This document shows, piece after piece, positions 3,696-34,774 of a stretch of 53,905 nucleotides of DNA. The stretch is from a virus. Each line of letters begins with the position of its first letter. Position 1 is the stretch's first letter. Both the position numbers and the translations under genes were made by a program. The stretch lies in the IMG/VR virus record IMGVR_UViG_3300009964_000006. One strand, 5' to 3'. The notes below the pieces were generated by a model that ran no database searches, was not told where the DNA came from, and saw only the letters and a program-made list of their open reading frames with translations.

Positions 3696-5152
3696 AGTTT
3701 AATCACTACACATGGGACTTGTATAAACAAACCGATGTCGGCAAGAAAGCTATTAGTTTATTTGAAAACGCTGCCCATGATATATCTATATATGAACTTG
3801 TTTCCAAATATAATCCCATGGAGGCAAGGTTTTCAGATAAAGACAGTATGGAAGATTGTTGTGAACTTCTATGGGAACTTGCAATCAAGAAGATGCTATT
3901 GCCAACCAATATAGATGATGCACGAAATCTATACGAGCAAATAATAGATGGAGCGATATTGTTTGATGATGGAGAACCTTTTATAGAAAAAGCGGACTAT
4001 AAAACATATCTCATGGCTAATATGGATATATCTTTCATGTTGTTTTTCAAGGCTCCAGAGTATTTCTTTCCTAATATATTCCGATACCATTTCTTTGACC
4101 TTATAAAAGTATTTGATATATTTGACATAGAATTGCCATTACCACCTAAAAAGAGTAATTATAGGGCACGGTGTATGTATTATTGGGAACTATGCGAGAT
4201 ACTATATTCTTTTCGTAAAGAAAATGGACTATCTCCGTATGAGCTATGCGCTATGCTTTATGACTTTGGTCAAGGGCTTACAAAGAATATTCCAACAGAA
4301 TTGCCGAAACCATCTAAGGCTTGGTTTATTGGCGGTAAGATTATGCCAATAGAAGATTTGGATTTTACATTTTGGCAAGCTAATGAGGATACTATGCGAG
4401 GAGATATTCTCATACACTACGAAACCTCTCCTATATGTGCAATAACATGTATGTGGATAGCCCAAATAGATGGTGTTATAGACCCGTTCTTTTATTACTA
4501 TGCTAACACATACATAGGAAGTAGAATAAAGCTACCACATGTAACTTTGCAGGAATTAAAGAACGATGAATACTTTTCTTCTCATCCACTTGTCAGGAAA
4601 AACTTTCAAGGAGTAAATGGATGGGAAATAAGTAATAGGGATTATCAAGAGTTTTTGCGAATAATACAGACAAAAAAGTACGATACAAGTAAATTACCAG
4701 TCTTATATGCACCTAAAATAGCTTGTACAAATATAAAATTAGAGAAAGATGTAGAAGAACATTTATTAATACCTTTACTTGATAGTATGGGTATGACAGA
4801 CTACATGCGACAAGTTCCATTACGGGCTGGATGCGGTGAAAGAATATATCCTGATTTTGCGGTGCATTGTACAAAAACAGATAATGGCTACATTGCCAAA
4901 GTACTTATAGAAGCAAAACTTTCCATGCGCAACAAAAAAGAAGTGTATGCAGCATTTCAACAAGCTAATTCTTACGCACATTTGTTAGAAGCACCTATTA
5001 TAATTCTCTGTGATAAGGAAATGCTTCTTGTTTATACAAATGAAAATGGATTTAATAGGAATAGATACAAGAGATTCTTTTGGGAGGATATGGAAAATCC
5101 AGATAGTTTTAACGAACTAAGACAAATAATTAAACTGAAATCTCAAATGTAA
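3692..5152 (+). CDS. 486-aa protein with a C-terminal PD-(D/E)xK nuclease module (HSDR_N/Mrr-like) and a possible central PUA/EVE-like module; candidate defence nuclease
   Basis: The ATG at 3692 is translationally coupled to the XRE gene. Motif YPDFAV...(x17)...LIEAK...QQANSYA lies at about 4847..4960. The central segment WFIGGK...RGDILIHYETSPICAITCMWIAQ resembles an EVE/ASCH-type beta-barrel (weak, by eye). Confidence 0.65.
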   Translation: MKFNHYTWDLYKQTDVGKKAISLFENAAHDISIYELVSKYNPMEARFSDKDSMEDCCELLWELAIKKMLLPTNIDDARNLYEQIIDGAILFDDGEPFIEKADYKTYLMANMDISFMLFFKAPEYFFPNIFRYHFFDLIKVFDIFDIELPLPPKKSNYRARCMYYWELCEILYSFRKENGLSPYELCAMLYDFGQGLTKNIPTELPKPSKAWFIGGKIMPIEDLDFTFWQANEDTMRGDILIHYETSPICAITCMWIAQIDGVIDPFFYYYANTYIGSRIKLPHVTLQELKNDEYFSSHPLVRKNFQGVNGWEISNRDYQEFLRIIQTKKYDTSKLPVLYAPKIACTNIKLEKDVEEHLLIPLLDSMGMTDYMRQVPLRAGCGERIYPDFAVHCTKTDNGYIAKVLIEAKLSMRNKKEVYAAFQQANSYAHLLEAPIIILCDKEMLLVYTNENGFNRNRYKRFFWEDMENPDSFNELRQIIKLKSQM

Positions 5153-26316: not shown

Positions 26317-27516
26317 CTATACTTTTAGAACGTAATCTAAAAGTTTTACATTAGCATCGTTTATGTGGCTAAAATCCTTTTTAATGTATAGTTCCGTTAT
26401 CTTCAATGATTGGTCAGTGTGGTTTAGCATATCATTCACTATATACTTGCTTATTTTCACGTCATTTACGGCAATCGTAGCCATAGAATGCCTGGCAGCA
26501 TAGAATTGTAGACGCTCAATGCCAATTTCTTTACCTATATCCTTTAGTCCAATGTTTATCGCACGGTTGAAACTCTCCATAGTTGCAAACCTCTCATAGA
26601 AGTTAAATACACGCTCTTTACCCTTGTATTTCTCAATTAGCGGTTTGATATAATCTGTTATTTTCACTTGTATTTCAGCCTTATCTCTCCGCCTATCTTT
26701 TGTTTTCATGCGGTCATATACTATTGTATTCCCATCGATTTCGGTGGCATTAAAGAGGTCAGCAGAGTTCATTCCCATAAGGCAGAATGAAAGACGAAAA
26801 CAATCTAATGCTAAATCATGACGGCTGGACTTTCCTTTTACCTTGATATTGTCATAGGGTAGGGCGAATATTCTCCGTATTGTTTCTACGTCTAATGCTC
26901 GTTTTTCAGCTATGTTCTGCTCTACTGGTTTATATCTGTCTAAGGAGTGCTTAATTCGGATAATATCATTATCTTCATCATTATAATACTCCCTTGCAGC
27001 GTTGAATATTGTTTTGATGCAGTTAGGGTATAGAGATTGCGCCCTTTGACGGTCTTTTAATGTGTTCTCAAAGGCTTTCATTGTCTTAACGTTGATTTCC
27101 TCACAGAGGATATTATCACGCCCTACAAAGGAACACAAAGCATTCAGAGCCGTTTTGTAGTTCTTTATGCCTTTAATGGTTGATTCCTCAATCCATTTTG
27201 CTGCAAATTCCGTGAATGATACCCCTTTATTTTCTTTCTTTTGTCGGATATAGGAAACGATGGTATCGATGTCTATGTCGTTAAATTCAAGGCTTAATTC
27301 GCTTAATCTATTCCTATATTCTTTTATTATATCATTGCACCTATCGAGTATATTTGCATTTTTTATCTTGAATGAAGCTGTAATATCCTTTTTAGTGATA
27401 TACATCGTGGTAGGAATGTATCTTGTTTTATTAGTGTGAGTAAACCGAATGTGTACACTCCACGTTTTATCGCTTCGCATTCGGTTTTTAAATATAGTTG
27501 GTTTGAAAGTTGCCAT
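26317..27516 (-). CDS. int: Tyrosine site-specific integrase (Bacteroides phage/CTn type)
   Basis: 399 aa from ATG 27516 (MATFKPTIFKNRMRSDKTWSVHIRFTH...). C-terminal catalytic-region pattern ...FYAARHSMATIA...LNHTD...YI. The track's extra 66 N-terminal codons read through the attP/tRNA fragment and are rejected. Confidence 0.85.
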   Translation of the reverse strand: MATFKPTIFKNRMRSDKTWSVHIRFTHTNKTRYIPTTMYITKKDITASFKIKNANILDRCNDIIKEYRNRLSELSLEFNDIDIDTIVSYIRQKKENKGVSFTEFAAKWIEESTIKGIKNYKTALNALCSFVGRDNILCEEINVKTMKAFENTLKDRQRAQSLYPNCIKTIFNAAREYYNDEDNDIIRIKHSLDRYKPVEQNIAEKRALDVETIRRIFALPYDNIKVKGKSSRHDLALDCFRLSFCLMGMNSADLFNATEIDGNTIVYDRMKTKDRRRDKAEIQVKITDYIKPLIEKYKGKERVFNFYERFATMESFNRAINIGLKDIGKEIGIERLQFYAARHSMATIAVNDVKISKYIVNDMLNHTDQSLKITELYIKKDFSHINDANVKLLDYVLKV

Positions 27517-27653
27517 ATCTGCTAAAAGTCTGCTAAATGTTTTTGTTATTACTTGTGAGGAATATATACTACTTGTAATATTCTTATATTGTAGAATTAG
27601 TGTATAAAAAAAGCGAAAATCCTTTTTTTTATTGGATTTCCGCTTGTTTTTTA

Positions 27654-27698
27654 TGGGGTGGAAGGTGGGACTCGAACCCACGACATTCAGAACCACAA
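27654..27698 (-). other. attP core: 45-nt copy of the 3' part of a tRNA-His(GTG) gene (anticodon loop to CCA)
   Basis: Minus strand reads TTGTGGTTCTGAATGTCGTGGGTTCGAGTCCCACCTTCCACCCCA, with T-arm GTGGG-TTCGAGT-CCCAC, acceptor 3' strand and CCA. No matching 5' half is present. It is flanked by the 10-bp inverted repeat TTCCGCTTGT / ACAAGCGGAA (27638..27647, 27695..27704) and lies 138 nt upstream of int. Confidence 0.75.
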
Positions 27699-27871: not shown

Positions 27872-28558
27872 TTACACAATTCTTTGGCTGACTATTCGAA
27901 TAGCTTTCCACATTCCTCTTATCTCTGTACGACCTACTTCCATTTGCCCATATAATGGATTATCTGATTTTAAAGTAATAATGTTGTTGATAAATAAACT
28001 GTTTTTAAGAATCCGCTTTATAACGAACATTTTGCCATACACCACAAAAACCACGCCCGATAATTCCTCCCATCTTTCTTCGGGTATTCGCATTGCAAGG
28101 ACTTTTGCCTTGTCTGGGATTGTGGGAACCATACTTTCTCCTACAACTTTAAACACCACATATTCTCCACTATTCAAATCTTCTCCTTCTTCTTGCATTA
28201 CTCCGTACTTATCAACGTTATAGTGCTGGTCGTACATATTTTCTATGAACGTAGCAGCAGCATCAGCGTCCACTATCGGCACTTCTATCAATTCATCATT
28301 GATGTATGTCTTTATCGGCTGTGCATTGCTCGGTTCTGTAAGGAACATAGAACCTTCGCCATTTACAAGCCATTTATACGAAACATTAAGATTATCACAT
28401 ATAGCATTTATTAATTTCGGTGCTACATTCCTATCTCCGTTGAGTATTTTAGACAAATTAGACTGATTGAAATCAATCATCTTTGCAAACTTAGATGGAG
28501 ATACATTCTCGTGTTCAATGAGTATTTTAATCCTCATTACAATATTCTTATTCTCCAT
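27872..28558 (-). CDS. CI/LexA-like repressor (XRE HTH + S24 peptidase domain)
   Basis: N-terminal HTH (SPSKFAKMIDFNQSNLSKILNG). C-terminal S24 motifs GESMVPTI (Ser nucleophile) and FVIKRIL (Lys). Confidence 0.85.
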   Translation of the reverse strand: MENKNIVMRIKILIEHENVSPSKFAKMIDFNQSNLSKILNGDRNVAPKLINAICDNLNVSYKWLVNGEGSMFLTEPSNAQPIKTYINDELIEVPIVDADAAATFIENMYDQHYNVDKYGVMQEEGEDLNSGEYVVFKVVGESMVPTIPDKAKVLAMRIPEERWEELSGVVFVVYGKMFVIKRILKNSLFINNIITLKSDNPLYGQMEVGRTEIRGMWKAIRIVSQRIV

Positions 28559-33440: not shown

Positions 33441-33877
33441 TGATTTATAACACATCCAACCCACTCGATAAGGCTAACTTCCTACTTCGTACTAAGAAGT
33501 TAGCCGAGAGTGGAAAAATAGTAGAACTGACCGAGAAAAAGCCAAGAAGAAGTTTACCACAGAATAAGTATTTGCACGTTATCCTTGCTTATTTTGGTAC
33601 GCAGACAGGTAATACACTTGAATGGGTTAAGCAGCAGTATTATAAGAAACTTGTAAACCCTGACTTGTTTATCCGTGAAAAGGAAGATAAGTACTTAGGT
33701 AAGATAAAAGTGCTTAGAAGCAGTGCCGACCTCGATACGGCAGAAATGAGTTTGTCAATAGAAAGGTTTAGGAATTGGGCTGCGCAAGAAGCTGGCATAT
33801 ACATACCATCGGCAGATGAAGCAATACTCATTCAGCAGATGGAGATAGAAATAGAAAGGAGTAAGGAATTTTTGTAA
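33440..33877 (+). CDS. NinB/Orf-like recombination mediator
   Basis: PRRSLPQNKYLHVILAYFG parallels the lambda NinB RSLDQNRKLWACLG motif. Confidence 0.5.
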   Translation: MIYNTSNPLDKANFLLRTKKLAESGKIVELTEKKPRRSLPQNKYLHVILAYFGTQTGNTLEWVKQQYYKKLVNPDLFIREKEDKYLGKIKVLRSSADLDTAEMSLSIERFRNWAAQEAGIYIPSADEAILIQQMEIEIERSKEFL

Positions 33878-33930
33878 CTCATCTTAATATGTTTTAATAG
33901 TTTAGAACGTGGGGAAGCGTCCCCACACTT

Positions 33931-34135
33931 GCTTTGGTGGCGGAATTGGTAGACGCTAAACTTAAGTCGGTGAGAAAGGGATATGGACGAGACCATTAGA
34001 ACAGAAGCCGTGTAAGCACCTCTAACATGGTATATCCCTATAAGTCAAGTGAAAATATTAAGACTTGTGCAACGCTTAGTTGGTAACGGCTAACACTTGA
34101 TATAATTCATGTAGGTTCGAATCCTGCCCAAAGCA
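33931..34135 (+). tRNA. Interrupted tRNA-like gene (type II/Leu-like arms) with an internal structured insertion of about 140 nt
   Basis: Acceptor GCTTTGG (33931..33937) pairs 7/7 with CCAAAGC (34128..34134). The D arm GCGGAATTGGTAGACGC is Leu-like. T arm GTAGG-TTCGAAT-CCTGC at 34111..34127. A possible anticodon loop CTTAAGT (UAA) lies at 33961..33967, but no 3' anticodon-stem strand follows. The insert contains an 8-bp stem (33977..33984 / 34032..34039) and others. Confidence 0.5.
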
Positions 34136-34235
34136 CGAATCTTAGTGATTCATACCAGCGCACGGAAGGATAGACGTGTGGAACGAGCTGGACACGTAAG
34201 TTTCGTAGTTCTGACTATCGGGAAAGACCGATAAA

Positions 34236-34306
34236 CGATGTATAGTGTAATGGTAGCACAACAGATTTTGGTTCTGTCAGTGGTGGTTCGAGTCCGCCTA
34301 CATTGA
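34236..34306 (+). tRNA. tRNA-Gln (anticodon TTG)
   Basis: Hand-folded cloverleaf: acceptor CGATGTA/TACATTG, D stem GTGT/GCAC, anticodon stem ACAGA/TCTGT with loop TTTTGGT, T arm GGTGG-TTCGAGT-CCGCC. 71 nt with no encoded CCA. Confidence 0.8.
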
Positions 34307-34321
34307 CTTAAATTTATAATT

Positions 34322-34774
34322 ATGGAAAGAATAACATCAGCAACTATTTTTAAAGCATTTGACGGAACAATTTTTGAATCGGAAATAAAATGCAAAGAAT
34401 ACGAGAAGAAGAGGAAAGAGTTTTTGAATAGGATAAAATTCTTTTTGGTAAAACATTCTCCTGATTTGACGGAAACAGGACTTTTTACAAATGGTTTGCT
34501 TGTAGCCGTTTATTCAATAGAGGGATTGCATCGAGAGATAGTGAACAACTATTGCATCAAAAGATTTGGATATTTAGGAGAATCTGTGCAAGGGTATAGA
34601 TTTCAGACCTATTTCAGTGTTTCATCGATAGACTTTGAAACATATATGAGCGGTGTAATTGTGGAATGGAGAGGTAAACGACGTTGCGATAAAATCCTCC
34701 TTAGTCCAAATGAGCTTGACGAGTTCAAAGGCATAGAAAGGTTTGATTATATGAAAGAATGGGGATTTAAATAA
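34322..34774 (+). CDS. Hypothetical protein (150 aa)
   Basis: Track ORF with ATGA-type coupling to the next gene. Confidence 0.55.
   Translation: MERITSATIFKAFDGTIFESEIKCKEYEKKRKEFLNRIKFFLVKHSPDLTETGLFTNGLLVAVYSIEGLHREIVNNYCIKRFGYLGESVQGYRFQTYFSVSSIDFETYMSGVIVEWRGKRRCDKILLSPNELDEFKGIERFDYMKEWGFK

Follow-up and report, generated by a model that had tools for sequence, protein, structure and literature searches.

The question raised by positions 33931-34135 of the phage DNA examined here (the window; 53,905 nucleotides, IMG/VR record IMGVR_UViG_3300009964_000006) is what kind of RNA is encoded by an element on the plus strand that has the acceptor stem, Leu-type D arm and T arm of a tRNA around a middle of 154 nt. 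The window belongs to a temperate phage of Prevotella-type gut bacteria, without a close relative among GenBank phages. From comparison of sequences, the element is probably (at a probability of roughly 0.65) a gene for a non-decoding small RNA scaffolded on a tRNA, of which the tRNA part (the chassis) would be the carrier and the insert (the cargo) an exchangeable effector.

The tRNA parts of the element, which the initial annotation had described as intact, are real. The 5' strand of the acceptor stem (GCTTTGG, 33931-33937) pairs perfectly over 7 bp with CCAAAGC at 34128-34134, and together with the discriminator A73 at 34135 the 3' strand occupies 34128-34135, CCA not being encoded. U8 and G9 are read from the sequence at 33938-33939, followed by a class-II Leu-type D arm, GCGGAATTGGTAGACGC (33940-33956), in which A14, A15, G18 and G19 are present. 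The T arm GUAGG-UUCGAAU-CCUGC (GTAGG-TTCGAAT-CCTGC in the DNA; 34111-34127) has a canonical T loop and one U.G pair in its stem. All of these features are on the plus strand. Among 12 distinct copies of the window element, the D arm is invariant (12/12), all acceptor positions are paired (100%) with compensatory double changes at six of the seven pairs across three chassis variants, and the T-arm stem varies by wobble changes only. Because the acceptor changes are compensatory and all acceptor positions are paired, the tRNA features are beyond chance, and with the invariant D arm and the conserved T arm they point to selection on the chassis. With a normal Leu middle grafted into it, the window chassis is called as tRNA-Leu by ARAGORN, and is a competent tRNA-Leu frame. 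The native element is not called by ARAGORN, intron mode included, or by Rfam, which found no match to a non-tRNA family at E<=10 in 33800-34400; neither program resolves it as a known class. At the place of an anticodon arm, the element has no 5-bp stem carrying a 7-nt loop (U33, anticodon, R37).

The D and T arms are separated by 154 nt (33957-34110) rather than the approximately 140 nt first estimated. This middle begins with a single-stranded linker of 13 nt, UAAACUUAAGUCG (33957-33969), which replaces the anticodon arm and has no closing strand. The motif CTTAAGT had been read as a Leu(UAA)-type anticodon loop for which no closing stem could be found; the stem is indeed absent, and one T of the motif is lost in a subgroup of copies (CTAAGT). 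A tentative closing helix, P0, would be formed by UGAG (GUGAG counting the pair with U48; 33971-33974) and UUCA (34106-34109), with U48 at 34110 (P0 3' strand plus U48, 34106-34110) as the last base before the T stem. Its pairing is kept in the variants GTGAA/TTCAT, GTGAG/CTCGT and GTGAG/TTCGT, and one pair is broken in GCGAG/TTCAT.

Two domains follow. Domain B (33977-34039) is built from the helix AGGGAUAU/AUAUCCCU, a second helix, ACCAU/AUGGU, that contains a bulge of 7 nt, and a GUG/CAC hairpin at the distal end. All of its positions are paired, the changes being a compensatory replacement of G-C by A-U in four sequences and three wobble-preserving ones. The outer helix of domain B, proposed earlier as AGGGATAT/ATATCCCT (33977-33984 / 34032-34039), thus gains support from the double change and from wobbles, and the proposed ACCA/TGGT pairing, now ACCAT/ATGGT, agrees with a U-A to U.G change. 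Domain C (34045-34100) is predicted by minimum free energy as a helix UCAAGUG/CACUUGA around a hairpin UUAG-UUGGUAACGG-CUAA, and is invariant in all 12 distinct copies. The TCAAGTG/CACTTGA and TTAG/CTAA helices of the initial annotation are therefore conserved but uninformative as to covariation, because neither ever varies, whereas its alternative AAGTC/GACTT pairing is contradicted by uncompensated G>A and U>A changes. Covariation inside the window cargo amounts to one double change and several wobbles, most helices being invariant, and the stability of the whole-element fold differs weakly from that of shuffled sequences (z = -1.76). The insert is shown to be a two-domain cargo of 137 nt at the long variable-arm position, after the 13-nt linker and with a tentative closing helix.

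Several possible features of the cargo were considered and rejected. The sole open reading frame in the window cargo (ATGGACGAG...TAA, 10 codons) was rejected as a micro-ORF or tag peptide, being frame-shifted by 1-nt indels in the relatives L150 and L219. The occurrence of GGTAACGGCT in the window cargo and of an 18-nt 16S-like stretch in locus L084 raised the idea that cargos mimic rRNA; when 72 cargos were compared by BLAST with the E. coli rrn operon, nothing rose above shuffled controls. The short motifs GTCGGTRRGAAA and TTGGTAAC are common to the cargos of the window and of L148, for which homology was rejected as the alignment was unconvincing.

Comparison with relatives revealed that the cargo is exchanged independently of its surroundings. 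Where NinB is 85-98% identical to that of the window phage, the same site holds either no element or one of at least 10 unrelated cargos (44-171 nt), which, down to the 44-nt replacement, also come without an anticodon arm. Conversely, the window cargo is found at 92-100% identity on three acceptor stems (GCTTTGG, GGATAGG and GGAGAAA), and at 92-94% identity in contigs whose 3-kb flanks have no detectable DNA similarity to the window. Other cargo families are likewise distributed over two to four different chassis. The high identity of cargos across chassis could be due to recent transfer, not to constraint. In a sister cargo family, two helices each exist in three fully compensated versions, and the TAATCAAG cargo family covaries from CATG/CATG through TATG/CATA to CAAG/CTTG. 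A tRNA-Gln-like cloverleaf, resembling a product of recombination between tRNA genes, is present in one cargo type.

The window element fits a class, proposed here, whose members lack an anticodon arm and combine a class-II Leu-type chassis that is intact with a cargo of 44-175 nt ending 1-3 nt before the T stem; the window element has all of these properties, and its cargo is exchangeable as well. In the phage contigs that were scanned, the class comprises at least 171 distinct elements with at least 74 acceptor stems and at least 122 unrelated cargo families. An anticodon arm is absent from about 98% of the class, only 4 of the 171 elements listed having a weak anticodon-arm-like start. The usual layout is the D arm, a single-stranded linker, and a helix that ends 2 nt before the T stem: a linker of 4-25 nt followed by a helix abutting the T stem was found in 44% of families versus 12-20% of shuffled sequences, and in 43 of 122 families the gap between closing helix and T stem is exactly 2 nt. 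The cargo is therefore located at the class-II variable-arm position, as is helix H2 of tmRNA. Among 104 long tRNA-like elements found without requiring a D arm, 79 have the same D arm as the window element and most others have close variants; a Leu-type D arm is present in approximately 95% of long tRNA-like elements, though all tRNA types occur in the same loci. Immediately before the T stem there is a T in 58/58 cargo elements and in 33/33 normal tRNA-Leu genes, which fits the A15-U48 tertiary pair that belongs to tRNA-Leu. The discriminator is A in 142 of the 171 cargo elements listed (83%), versus 59 of 59 normal tRNA-Leu genes.

The Rfam tRNA model scores 36-47 bits on short-cargo relatives with the same chassis. 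At gathering thresholds and at E<=10, the window, 14 related loci and L084 gave only tRNA matches to the chassis, and no group I intron, tmRNA, Y RNA, ribozyme or riboswitch was detected in them. Taken as sequences, these elements support the existence of a large modular family of tRNA-scaffolded noncoding RNAs. A more far-reaching proposal, which we offer tentatively and as somewhat doubtful, is that phages of Bacteroidota, together with those of other lineages that have large tRNA clusters, may use a tRNA-Leu lacking its anticodon arm as a universal chassis on which well over 100 structured RNA effectors are mounted, expressed and swapped, the invariant D and T arms serving as recombination anchors and the cargos as weapons of conflict. 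If so, the chassis would be a natural RNA 'display vector', and the cargos would be decoys, sponges or inhibitors in phage-host or phage-phage conflict.

The flanks of the element also have features in common with those of its relatives. An AT-rich, promoter-like leader with a TTTTAATAGTTTA motif (33878-33908, plus strand) lies between the NinB stop codon and a GC hairpin, GTGGGGA-AGCG-TCCCCAC (33909-33926, plus strand), that ends 4 nt before position +1 of the element. From its sequence the leader may act as a promoter, sigma-70 scanning being a method that does not cover Bacteroidota promoters. The hairpin and the rest of the approximately 40 nt directly upstream accompany the element into contigs that are unrelated in other respects; in L197 and L211, upstream identity of 92-95% is confined to window positions 33891-33930. 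A GC-rich hairpin ends 3-6 nt upstream in 66 of 122 cargo-family representatives, and also precedes tRNA-Gln in relatives.

Downstream of the element is a structured spacer of 99 nt with three hairpins (34137-34235, plus strand; MFE -28.7 kcal/mol, z = -2.6), which has no Rfam match, is common to L122 and L192, and is not clearly part of the element. An ordinary tRNA-Gln(UUG) follows (34236-34307, plus strand; called by ARAGORN, 61.1 bits with Rfam); the initial annotation was correct in placing the element next to a normal tRNA-Gln in an early operon. The next open reading frame (34322-34774, 150 amino acids) has no family match and does not strictly co-occur with the element: L150 has the element only, and L156 has the open reading frame without a Leu-type element. 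Clustering of 1242 neighbouring open reading frames identified no RNA-related partner protein conserved across lineages; only the NinB/SSB/NinG recombination module recurs. A gene for an HNH homing endonuclease adjoins the element in some relatives.

These observations suggest how the element might function. Transcription would start from a short promoter and leader that belong to the element, and the transcript would be processed as a tRNA, by RNase P cleavage at G33931, 3' trimming after A34135 and addition of CCA; such processing is predicted because the upper half and core of a class-II tRNA-Leu (7-bp acceptor, U8, D arm, U48 and T arm) are fully kept. By its likeness to tRNA, the processed RNA would fold into a stable L-shaped core. 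The chassis would thus supply tRNA-type processing and stability while the cargo does the work, and phages would swap the cargo as a cassette. The cargo would most likely bind or regulate a factor of the host or of a rival phage, or act as a decoy for it, and would belong to the fast-evolving accessory repertoire of temperate phages.

The principle of such an RNA has precedents. Ponchon and Dardel reportedly engineered a tRNA scaffold for recombinant RNA in which a structured RNA takes the place of the anticodon stem-loop. The engineered scaffold likewise relies on a tRNA body for correct processing and nuclease resistance, but it is man-made and carries its cargo on the anticodon stem, whereas in the natural elements the anticodon arm is usually missing and the cargo is attached where a class-II tRNA has its variable arm. 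In phage T4, the stable species 1 RNA (rnaC) and species 2 RNA (rnaD) are encoded in a tRNA gene cluster that adjoins the homing endonuclease gene segB, and their function is still unknown (PMC9697503). The 139-nt rnaC ends in a canonical T arm (CCGGG-UUCGAAU-CCCGG) and an acceptor-like stem; a hairpin lies directly against the T arm, and the interior is about 100 nt of structured RNA. Unlike the window element, rnaC has no recognisable Leu-type D arm and has two U.U mismatches in its acceptor stem; no sequence similarity between the two was seen, and cargo exchange is undescribed for rnaC. The relation is one of analogy, not demonstrated homology, and by that analogy species 1 RNA may be a distant example of the class.

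The initial annotation had suggested, among other possibilities, a tRNA-scaffolded noncoding RNA with a tmRNA-like or Y-RNA-like tRNA mimic. The scaffold and the topology of tmRNA are borne out; membership of the tmRNA family and likeness to Y RNA are not. YrlA is a noncoding RNA, also present in phages, that mimics the D arm, T arm and acceptor of tRNA and is modified and processed by tRNA enzymes (PMC4201824). The two do not correspond, YrlA being a circular permutation of the layout seen in the window element: its 5' and 3' ends form a Ro-binding stem and its 'acceptor' is a closed stem-loop (PMC4201824), whereas the ends of the window element form the acceptor stem. YrlA is also linked to rsr (Ro60). 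No Y-RNA match was found with Rfam, and no TROVE domain (Ro60) among the 19 window open reading frames scanned.

Like the window element, tmRNA (SsrA) has an acceptor stem and T arm, lacks an anticodon arm, and is processed as a tRNA, as is predicted for the window element. Helix H2 of tmRNA, at the position of a long variable arm, carries the rest of the RNA (PMC3968760), and the body of the window element is at the same position, with its closing helix tentative. Differences are numerous: the D loop of tmRNA is degenerate and bound by SmpB, and tmRNA has the G3.U70 identity for alanine, a tag open reading frame and a ring of pseudoknots in 300-400 nt, whereas the window element has a full Leu-type D arm, U-A as pair 3-70, no conserved open reading frame, and a cargo of 154 nt, linker included, that is replaced by unrelated sequences in relatives. 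Neither ARAGORN nor Rfam called the window element as tmRNA. Some phages do encode tmRNA.

One alternative is that the RNA is a mimic charged with leucine, LeuRS being indifferent to the anticodon, and acts through its charged end, whether as a tmRNA-like ligand of the ribosome, as a leucine donor for a non-ribosomal transferase, or as a competitor for LeuRS or EF-Tu. The predominance of the Leu-type D arm (about 95% of long elements, in loci where every tRNA type is found) is in its favour, as are the topology matching tmRNA with the cargo at the H2 position and the retention of A73 (83%), A14, A15-U48 and G18G19. These are identity elements of E. coli LeuRS (reviewed in PMC9976931). The discriminator, though, is G, T or C in 29 of the 171 elements listed, and differs even between near-identical copies of the window element (G in the L205 group and L223, T in L197), which a strict requirement for charging should not tolerate. 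Furthermore, there is no G3.U70, no tmRNA call and no conserved tag, the full D arm fills the place that SmpB takes on tmRNA, and no transferase or SmpB-like gene is linked to the element. Aminoacylation as the mode of action is thus unlikely. The preferences for a Leu chassis and for A73 (83%), which are left unexplained by a chassis that is purely a carrier, nevertheless hint that charging might matter.

Small RNAs such as C4 of P1 and P7 and CI of P4 are matured by RNase P from phage transcripts, and their variable loops set specificity between related phages. An antisense RNA for immunity or exclusion of this kind, acting in trans by pairing of linker or cargo loops with mRNA of the phage itself, a rival phage or the host, would give the hypervariability of the class a meaning as a set of immunity specificities. 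The release of such phage regulators by RNase P, among whose substrates they are listed in reviews, is a precedent, the linker of about 13 nt that replaces the anticodon arm is exposed, and the element is a hypervariable accessory of temperate phages. We nonetheless consider this rather improbable: complementarity of cargo and linker to the 54-kb phage genome was at chance level both by BLAST of the cargo and by pattern search with the linker complement, the phage already encodes a protein repressor of the CI type, and structured cargos of 100-170 nt exceed what an antisense seed needs. The C4 and CI RNAs themselves, unlike the window element, are 70-80 nt and lack a full tRNA core.

It is very unlikely that the element lacks a function of its own, being either a decaying tRNA-Leu pseudogene or neutral debris from recombination between tRNA genes of phages. 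The cloverleaf-bearing cargo, an apparent product of tRNA-gene recombination, is what such a process would leave, the site is a variable 'moron' slot from which the element is missing in some relatives, the discriminator is relaxed (17% non-A versus 0% in real tRNA-Leu), and the thermodynamic score is weak. Decay, which the initial annotation had also considered, is contradicted by the compensated acceptor stem and perfectly kept D and T arms, by one cargo occurring on three chassis and in phages with no other detectable DNA similarity, by changes that keep the pairing of helices in the window cargo and in the sister family, and by a recurrent, non-random architecture with hundreds of instances in which the chassis is intact.

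Although group I introns are established in the anticodon loops of bacterial tRNA-Leu(UAA), the insert starts near a motif resembling such a loop, and the element has an HNH gene beside it in some relatives, it is extremely unlikely that a compact or new intron, self-splicing or protein-dependent, is excised here to leave a decoding tRNA-Leu, as first suggested: no Intron_gpI or other ribozyme match was found at E<=10 in 33800-34400 or in 14 related loci, an exhaustive search of single contiguous excisions gave no solution with a 5-bp anticodon stem and a U33/R37 loop and 4-bp solutions no commoner than in shuffled sequences, the intron mode of ARAGORN was negative, the loop-like motif is one T short in a subgroup, and relatives have another cargo, likewise lacking an anticodon arm, or no element instead of an 'empty site' tRNA-Leu allele. 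The tRNA-Leu(UAA) genes with group I introns of cyanobacteria and plastids, and other bacterial tRNA genes with introns, share with the window element a large insertion between the D and T arms; their introns, however, are at least about 200 nt, match RF00028, interrupt an anticodon loop that is otherwise intact and are spliced out to give a complete tRNA, and the window element has none of these traits.

Noncoding RNAs resembling tRNA (tmRNA, YrlA, viral tRNA-like structures) and engineered tRNA scaffolds are already known; what appears to be new is natural scaffolding on a large scale, of which full-text searches of the literature found no earlier description, the nearest mention being a survey with unspecified 'tRNA-like' candidate RNAs in IMG/VR (PMC10690425). 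The class is missed by standard tRNA callers and by Rfam, apart from tRNA matches to the chassis. If the cargos are effectors, they would constitute a large untapped reservoir of RNA folds, possibly including RNA-based anti-defence or defence factors, and the chassis would offer an expression scaffold for Bacteroidota that is ready-made and naturally optimised. The class also provides a comparative handle on the species 1 and 2 RNAs of T4, whose function has been an open question since the 1970s. Members were found in a prophage of the isolate Hallella bergensis DSM 17361 (NZ_GG704783.1) and in the cultured Bacteroides phage BF1-TP2, two culturable systems that make the class directly testable; the annotation of the cultured phage wrongly gives one copy as a protein gene.

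The window encodes at 33931-34135 (+) a tRNA-Leu-like gene of sequence GCTTTGG-TG-GCGGAATTGGTAGACGC, 154 nt, GTAGG-TTCGAAT-CCTGC-CCAAAGC-A, which has, as the initial annotation recognized, acceptor, D and T arms around an abnormal middle. This chassis consists of a perfect 7-bp acceptor stem, a D arm of the standard class-II Leu type and a canonical T arm containing a single U.G pair; the sequence that separates the D arm from the T arm (33957-34110, +), here termed the cargo, had been put at about 140 nt and is slightly longer, at 154 nt. ARAGORN, run as that annotation had advised, called only the neighbouring tRNA-Gln (34236-34307, +) and rejected the native sequence of the element in intron mode too. 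The Rfam search likewise advised (gathering score and E<=10) found no group I intron, tmRNA, Y RNA or ribozyme in the element, and agreed with ARAGORN apart from a partial tRNA match of 14.9 bits in the 3' part. When the 154 nt were replaced with the middle of an ordinary phage tRNA-Leu, ARAGORN called the graft tRNA-Leu; thus, the frame is competent as a tRNA-Leu body, and the abnormality lies in the middle. The predicted fold of the whole RNA is only modestly better than those of shuffled sequences (z = -1.76).

With a probability of roughly two in three, the element is a natural tRNA-scaffolded noncoding RNA of which the cargo is the effector, a reading already proposed initially and upheld by the intact chassis, the absence of a decoding arm and a structured, exchanged cargo. 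An intron in a decoding tRNA, compact or novel, had also been proposed, and is rejected on sequence grounds: besides the Rfam and ARAGORN results, no "empty-site" tRNA-Leu allele was found among related loci, and when every single contiguous excision of the 154 nt was tried (requiring N26, a 5-bp stem, a 7-nt loop with U33/R37, a 5-bp stem and a variable region), none gave an anticodon arm with a 5-bp stem, and the four solutions with a 4-bp stem were no more than shuffled sequences gave. A weak anticodon-arm-like start was seen in just 4 of the 171 elements listed. In short cargos, the D arm is followed by an unpaired linker, often starting UA, and then by a domain, either a hairpin or branched, with a 3' strand that ends 2 nt short of the T stem, typically as ...C-A/G-U. 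In 43 of 122 family representatives, exactly 2 nt separate the last paired base from the T stem, and 44% of the representatives combine a 4-25-nt linker with a tail of <=3 nt, versus 12-20% of shuffles. The base preceding the T stem is always U, as expected from the pairing of U48 with A15 in tRNA-Leu. A linker and a helix ending near the T stem indicate that the anticodon arm has been deleted and that the cargo occupies the position of the long variable arm of class-II tRNAs, which probably accounts for the use of a class-II frame.

One metagenome scan yielded about 22 further copies of the window's cargo, 92-100% identical in the cargo, yet on three acceptor stems (GCTTTGG/CCAAAGC, GGATAGG/(T)CTATCC and GGAGAAA/TTTCTCC). 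Covariation, a check suggested in the initial annotation, was read from an alignment of the 12 distinct sequences: both sides have changed in six of seven acceptor pairs with 100% pairing, the D arm is invariant, and 99.8% of cells overall are paired; the upper half and core of the tRNA-Leu are under purifying selection, and random decay of the insert is unlikely. Among the helices that had been proposed for the insert, AGGGAUAU/AUAUCCCU gains support from one G-C to A-U double change in four sequences, plus wobble changes, and ACCAU/AUGGU has a U-A to U.G change with which it is consistent; UCAAGUG/CACUUGA and UUAG/CUAA do not vary, and AAGTC/GACTT is contradicted by uncompensated changes. 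CTTAAGT, the proposed anticodon-type loop, has lost a T in one subgroup. A tentative helix closing the cargo, (G)UGAG/UUCA(U), adjoins the T stem, and three of four variants preserve it. In contigs that carry the other two acceptor stems, no nucleotide similarity to the window was detectable within 3 kb on either side, and the element itself is still 92-94% identical there. What two loci (L197 and L211) share with the window is confined to the element and some 40 nt of leader; in another (L209), a Holliday-junction resolvase, a replication initiator and a DnaC-like loader again follow closely downstream of the element. Thus, the gene moves between phages together with its short leader, and is maintained.

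Among 80 IMG/VR loci fetched by the upstream NinB protein, those with NinB 85-98% identical keep the chassis GCTTTGGTGGCGGAATTGGTAGACGC ... GCAGGTTCGAGTCCTGCCCAAAGCA at the same place, and their middles differ entirely in sequence and length (at least 10 types, 44-171 nt); one type is a candidate pseudoknot, another a nested cloverleaf resembling a tRNA, and a third has a conserved 44-nt arm after a short hairpin. In L111, L127, L136 and L140, which are among the closest relatives, such an element is absent and only the tRNA-Gln is present. With middles interchangeable or absent, the site behaves as a cassette-like accessory slot. An HNH/NUMOD homing endonuclease gene has been inserted next to the element in some relatives, may drive cassette exchange and recalls segB of the T4 tRNA cluster; a free-standing example (NUMOD4, HNH_3, NUMOD1) lies between NinB and the element at L141 3913-4653, with similar insertions in L112, L120, L130, L137, L144, L145, L151, L152 and L159, about ten relatives. 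The same phage group has a second cargo-bearing frame (acceptor CGGAGTA/TACTCCG, Gln-like D arm GTGTAATTGGTTAGCAC) with a conserved 74-76-nt middle (..AACAGGGACGATACC..GGCAGGTGAAACGGGATTAAGC..), at L128 3704-3828, L137 5277-5401, L152 5287-5411 and L156 3494-3617, and yet other odd tRNA-like genes occupy the element's site in L113 and L140.

The tRNA-scaffolded reading extends to a widespread, modular and previously unannotated class. Three IMG/VR pattern scans, which looked for a Leu D-arm motif abnormally spaced from a T loop, gave at least 109, 119 and 120 stretches; with a closing 7-bp acceptor stem required, the matches listed include 171 distinct cargo-bearing elements on 74 acceptor stems. 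Their cargos, of bimodal length (44-80 and 100-175 nt), make up at least 122 sequence families (99 singletons), conserved within a type and unrelated between types; none of those tested matched an Rfam family. Several families are found on two to four chassis, among them a sister family (GGCAUA...UGAGAGU...GUAAGUCC) with six variants on four chassis and two helices, each in three fully compensated versions. A motif-free finder run over 1.68 Mb of fetched phage DNA returned 533 normal tRNAs, of every kind, besides 104 long ones; 79 of the latter have the exact Leu D arm and most others close variants, a few being on other frames, e.g. Gln-like. Cultured Bacteroides phage BF1-TP2 (host B. fragilis BL19) has one element between NinB and RusA, and two culturable systems allow functional tests of the class. 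In its record (PQ571263.1), "hypothetical protein gp8" (3787-3951) overlaps the tRNA-Leu-like gene (about 3829-3945) and is probably a mis-annotation.

Individual loci show further variety. One phage (L084 8231-8361, 8492-8622, 8823-8925 and 8960-9035) has three tandem cargo-bearing genes, the second with a different D arm and a cargo containing ACGGGTGAGTAACGCGTA, which we take to be a near-universal 16S rRNA segment; downstream are two T-arm-containing fragments with weak tmRNA-model matches. The TAATCAAGATGTGAGGTG... family (L017, L037, L038, L001, L008, L039; 116-119 nt, four chassis) has covarying helices, a likely pseudoknot GGUG/CACC, a stretch AAGCCGCAAAAA presumably identical to part of E. 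coli tmRNA, and a distal hairpin that in some members is a perfect Leu(UAA) anticodon stem-loop look-alike (CUGA-CUUAAAA-UCAG) and in others has an 8-nt loop. Three genes at L006 5644-6190, in a phage with 19 tRNA genes, have a common acceptor stem AGTCAGG and T arm; ARAGORN calls one tRNA-Leu(CAA), despite a pyrimidine at position 37, and the others have non-anticodon middles of 58 nt and 46 nt, which suggests duplication followed by replacement of the middle. Locus L001 also has a strong Rfam match to DUF2693-FD RNA (791-839, -; 76.5 bits), probably unrelated to its cargo element.

LeuRS does not read the anticodon and could plausibly charge the element, as is hinted at by the Leu bias of the class and 83% A73; a discriminator other than A73 is nevertheless present in 17% of listed elements, near-identical copies of the window's element among them, versus 0 of 59 normal tRNA-Leu at the same loci, so that charging is not strictly required. 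The element could also be an antisense immunity RNA of the P1 C4 or P4 CI kind, but this reading has no target so far, and the cargo has no complementarity to the phage genome. A pseudogene, decayed tRNA or recombination debris is unlikely given the compensatory acceptor changes, the invariant D arm, the recurrent linker-helix layout, conservation across unrelated flanks and the fully compensated sister-family helices.

Of the tmRNA-like and Y-RNA-like mimics first envisaged for a tRNA-scaffolded RNA, the element is a member of neither group: it has a full D arm and lacks G3.U70 and a tag ORF, unlike tmRNA, and YrlA RNA is permuted (PMC4201824). Group I intron-containing tRNAs were likewise rejected. 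The element would work much as an engineered tRNA scaffold does. The closest natural phage precedent found is T4 species 1 RNA (rnaC), a strongly structured (z = -4.6), stable 139-nt RNA encoded next to the segB homing endonuclease within the T4 tRNA cluster. This RNA ends in a canonical T arm, abutted by a hairpin, and an acceptor-like stem; its function is still listed as unknown (PMC9697503). No description of the class was found in the literature, a large survey of structured RNAs in IMG/VR mentioning unspecified tRNA-like candidates and not the class itself (PMC10690425). Following established tRNA biology, the element would be transcribed from its own promoter, cleaved at the 5' end by RNase P and trimmed at the 3' end before CCA addition, and the mature RNA would have tRNA-like stability. 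The cargo showed no mimicry of E. coli rRNA, linked partner protein or conserved ORF (indels break the ORF), and our best guess, from its hypervariable, horizontally mobile accessory behaviour, is a role in phage-host or phage-phage conflict.

The window phage is temperate and lambda-like, with an integrase (26317-27516, -) and a CI/S24-type repressor (27872-28558, -). Between them lies a tRNA 3'-end fragment with no matching 5' half (GTGGG-TTCGAGT-CCCAC-CTTCCAC-C-CCA; 27652-27683, -), probably the attP core, in which case integration would be at the 3' end of a tRNA gene of the host. No close relative was found among GenBank phages; the 5' half of the chassis has exact matches in prophages carried by Hallella bergensis DSM 17361 and by an oral Prevotella MAG, so that the hosts are Prevotellaceae. 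As initially noted, the element adjoins tRNA-Gln in an early operon, the recombination and replication module, in the order exonuclease, RecE-like nuclease, SSB, NinB, element, spacer, tRNA-Gln, unknown ORF, NinG/Rap, helicase, methylase, replication initiator and DnaC-like loader. The 99-nt spacer (34137-34235, +), common to L122 and L192, has three predicted hairpins (z = -2.6) and no Rfam match, and may represent either an independent small RNA or a spacer of the pre-tRNA. A GC-rich leader hairpin (33909-33926) ends upstream of position +1 of the tRNA-like RNA, as one does 3-6 nt before +1 in 66 of 122 cargo families; such hairpins, with recurring forms GTGGGGAAGCGTCCCCAC, GCCCGGAAAGACGGGC and CCCGTCCGTGAGGATAGGGCGG, also lie upstream of tRNA(-like) genes in L110-L159, L229, L231 and many more loci, and precede ordinary tRNA-Gln genes too, and may take part in processing, form a start-site structure or act as terminators.
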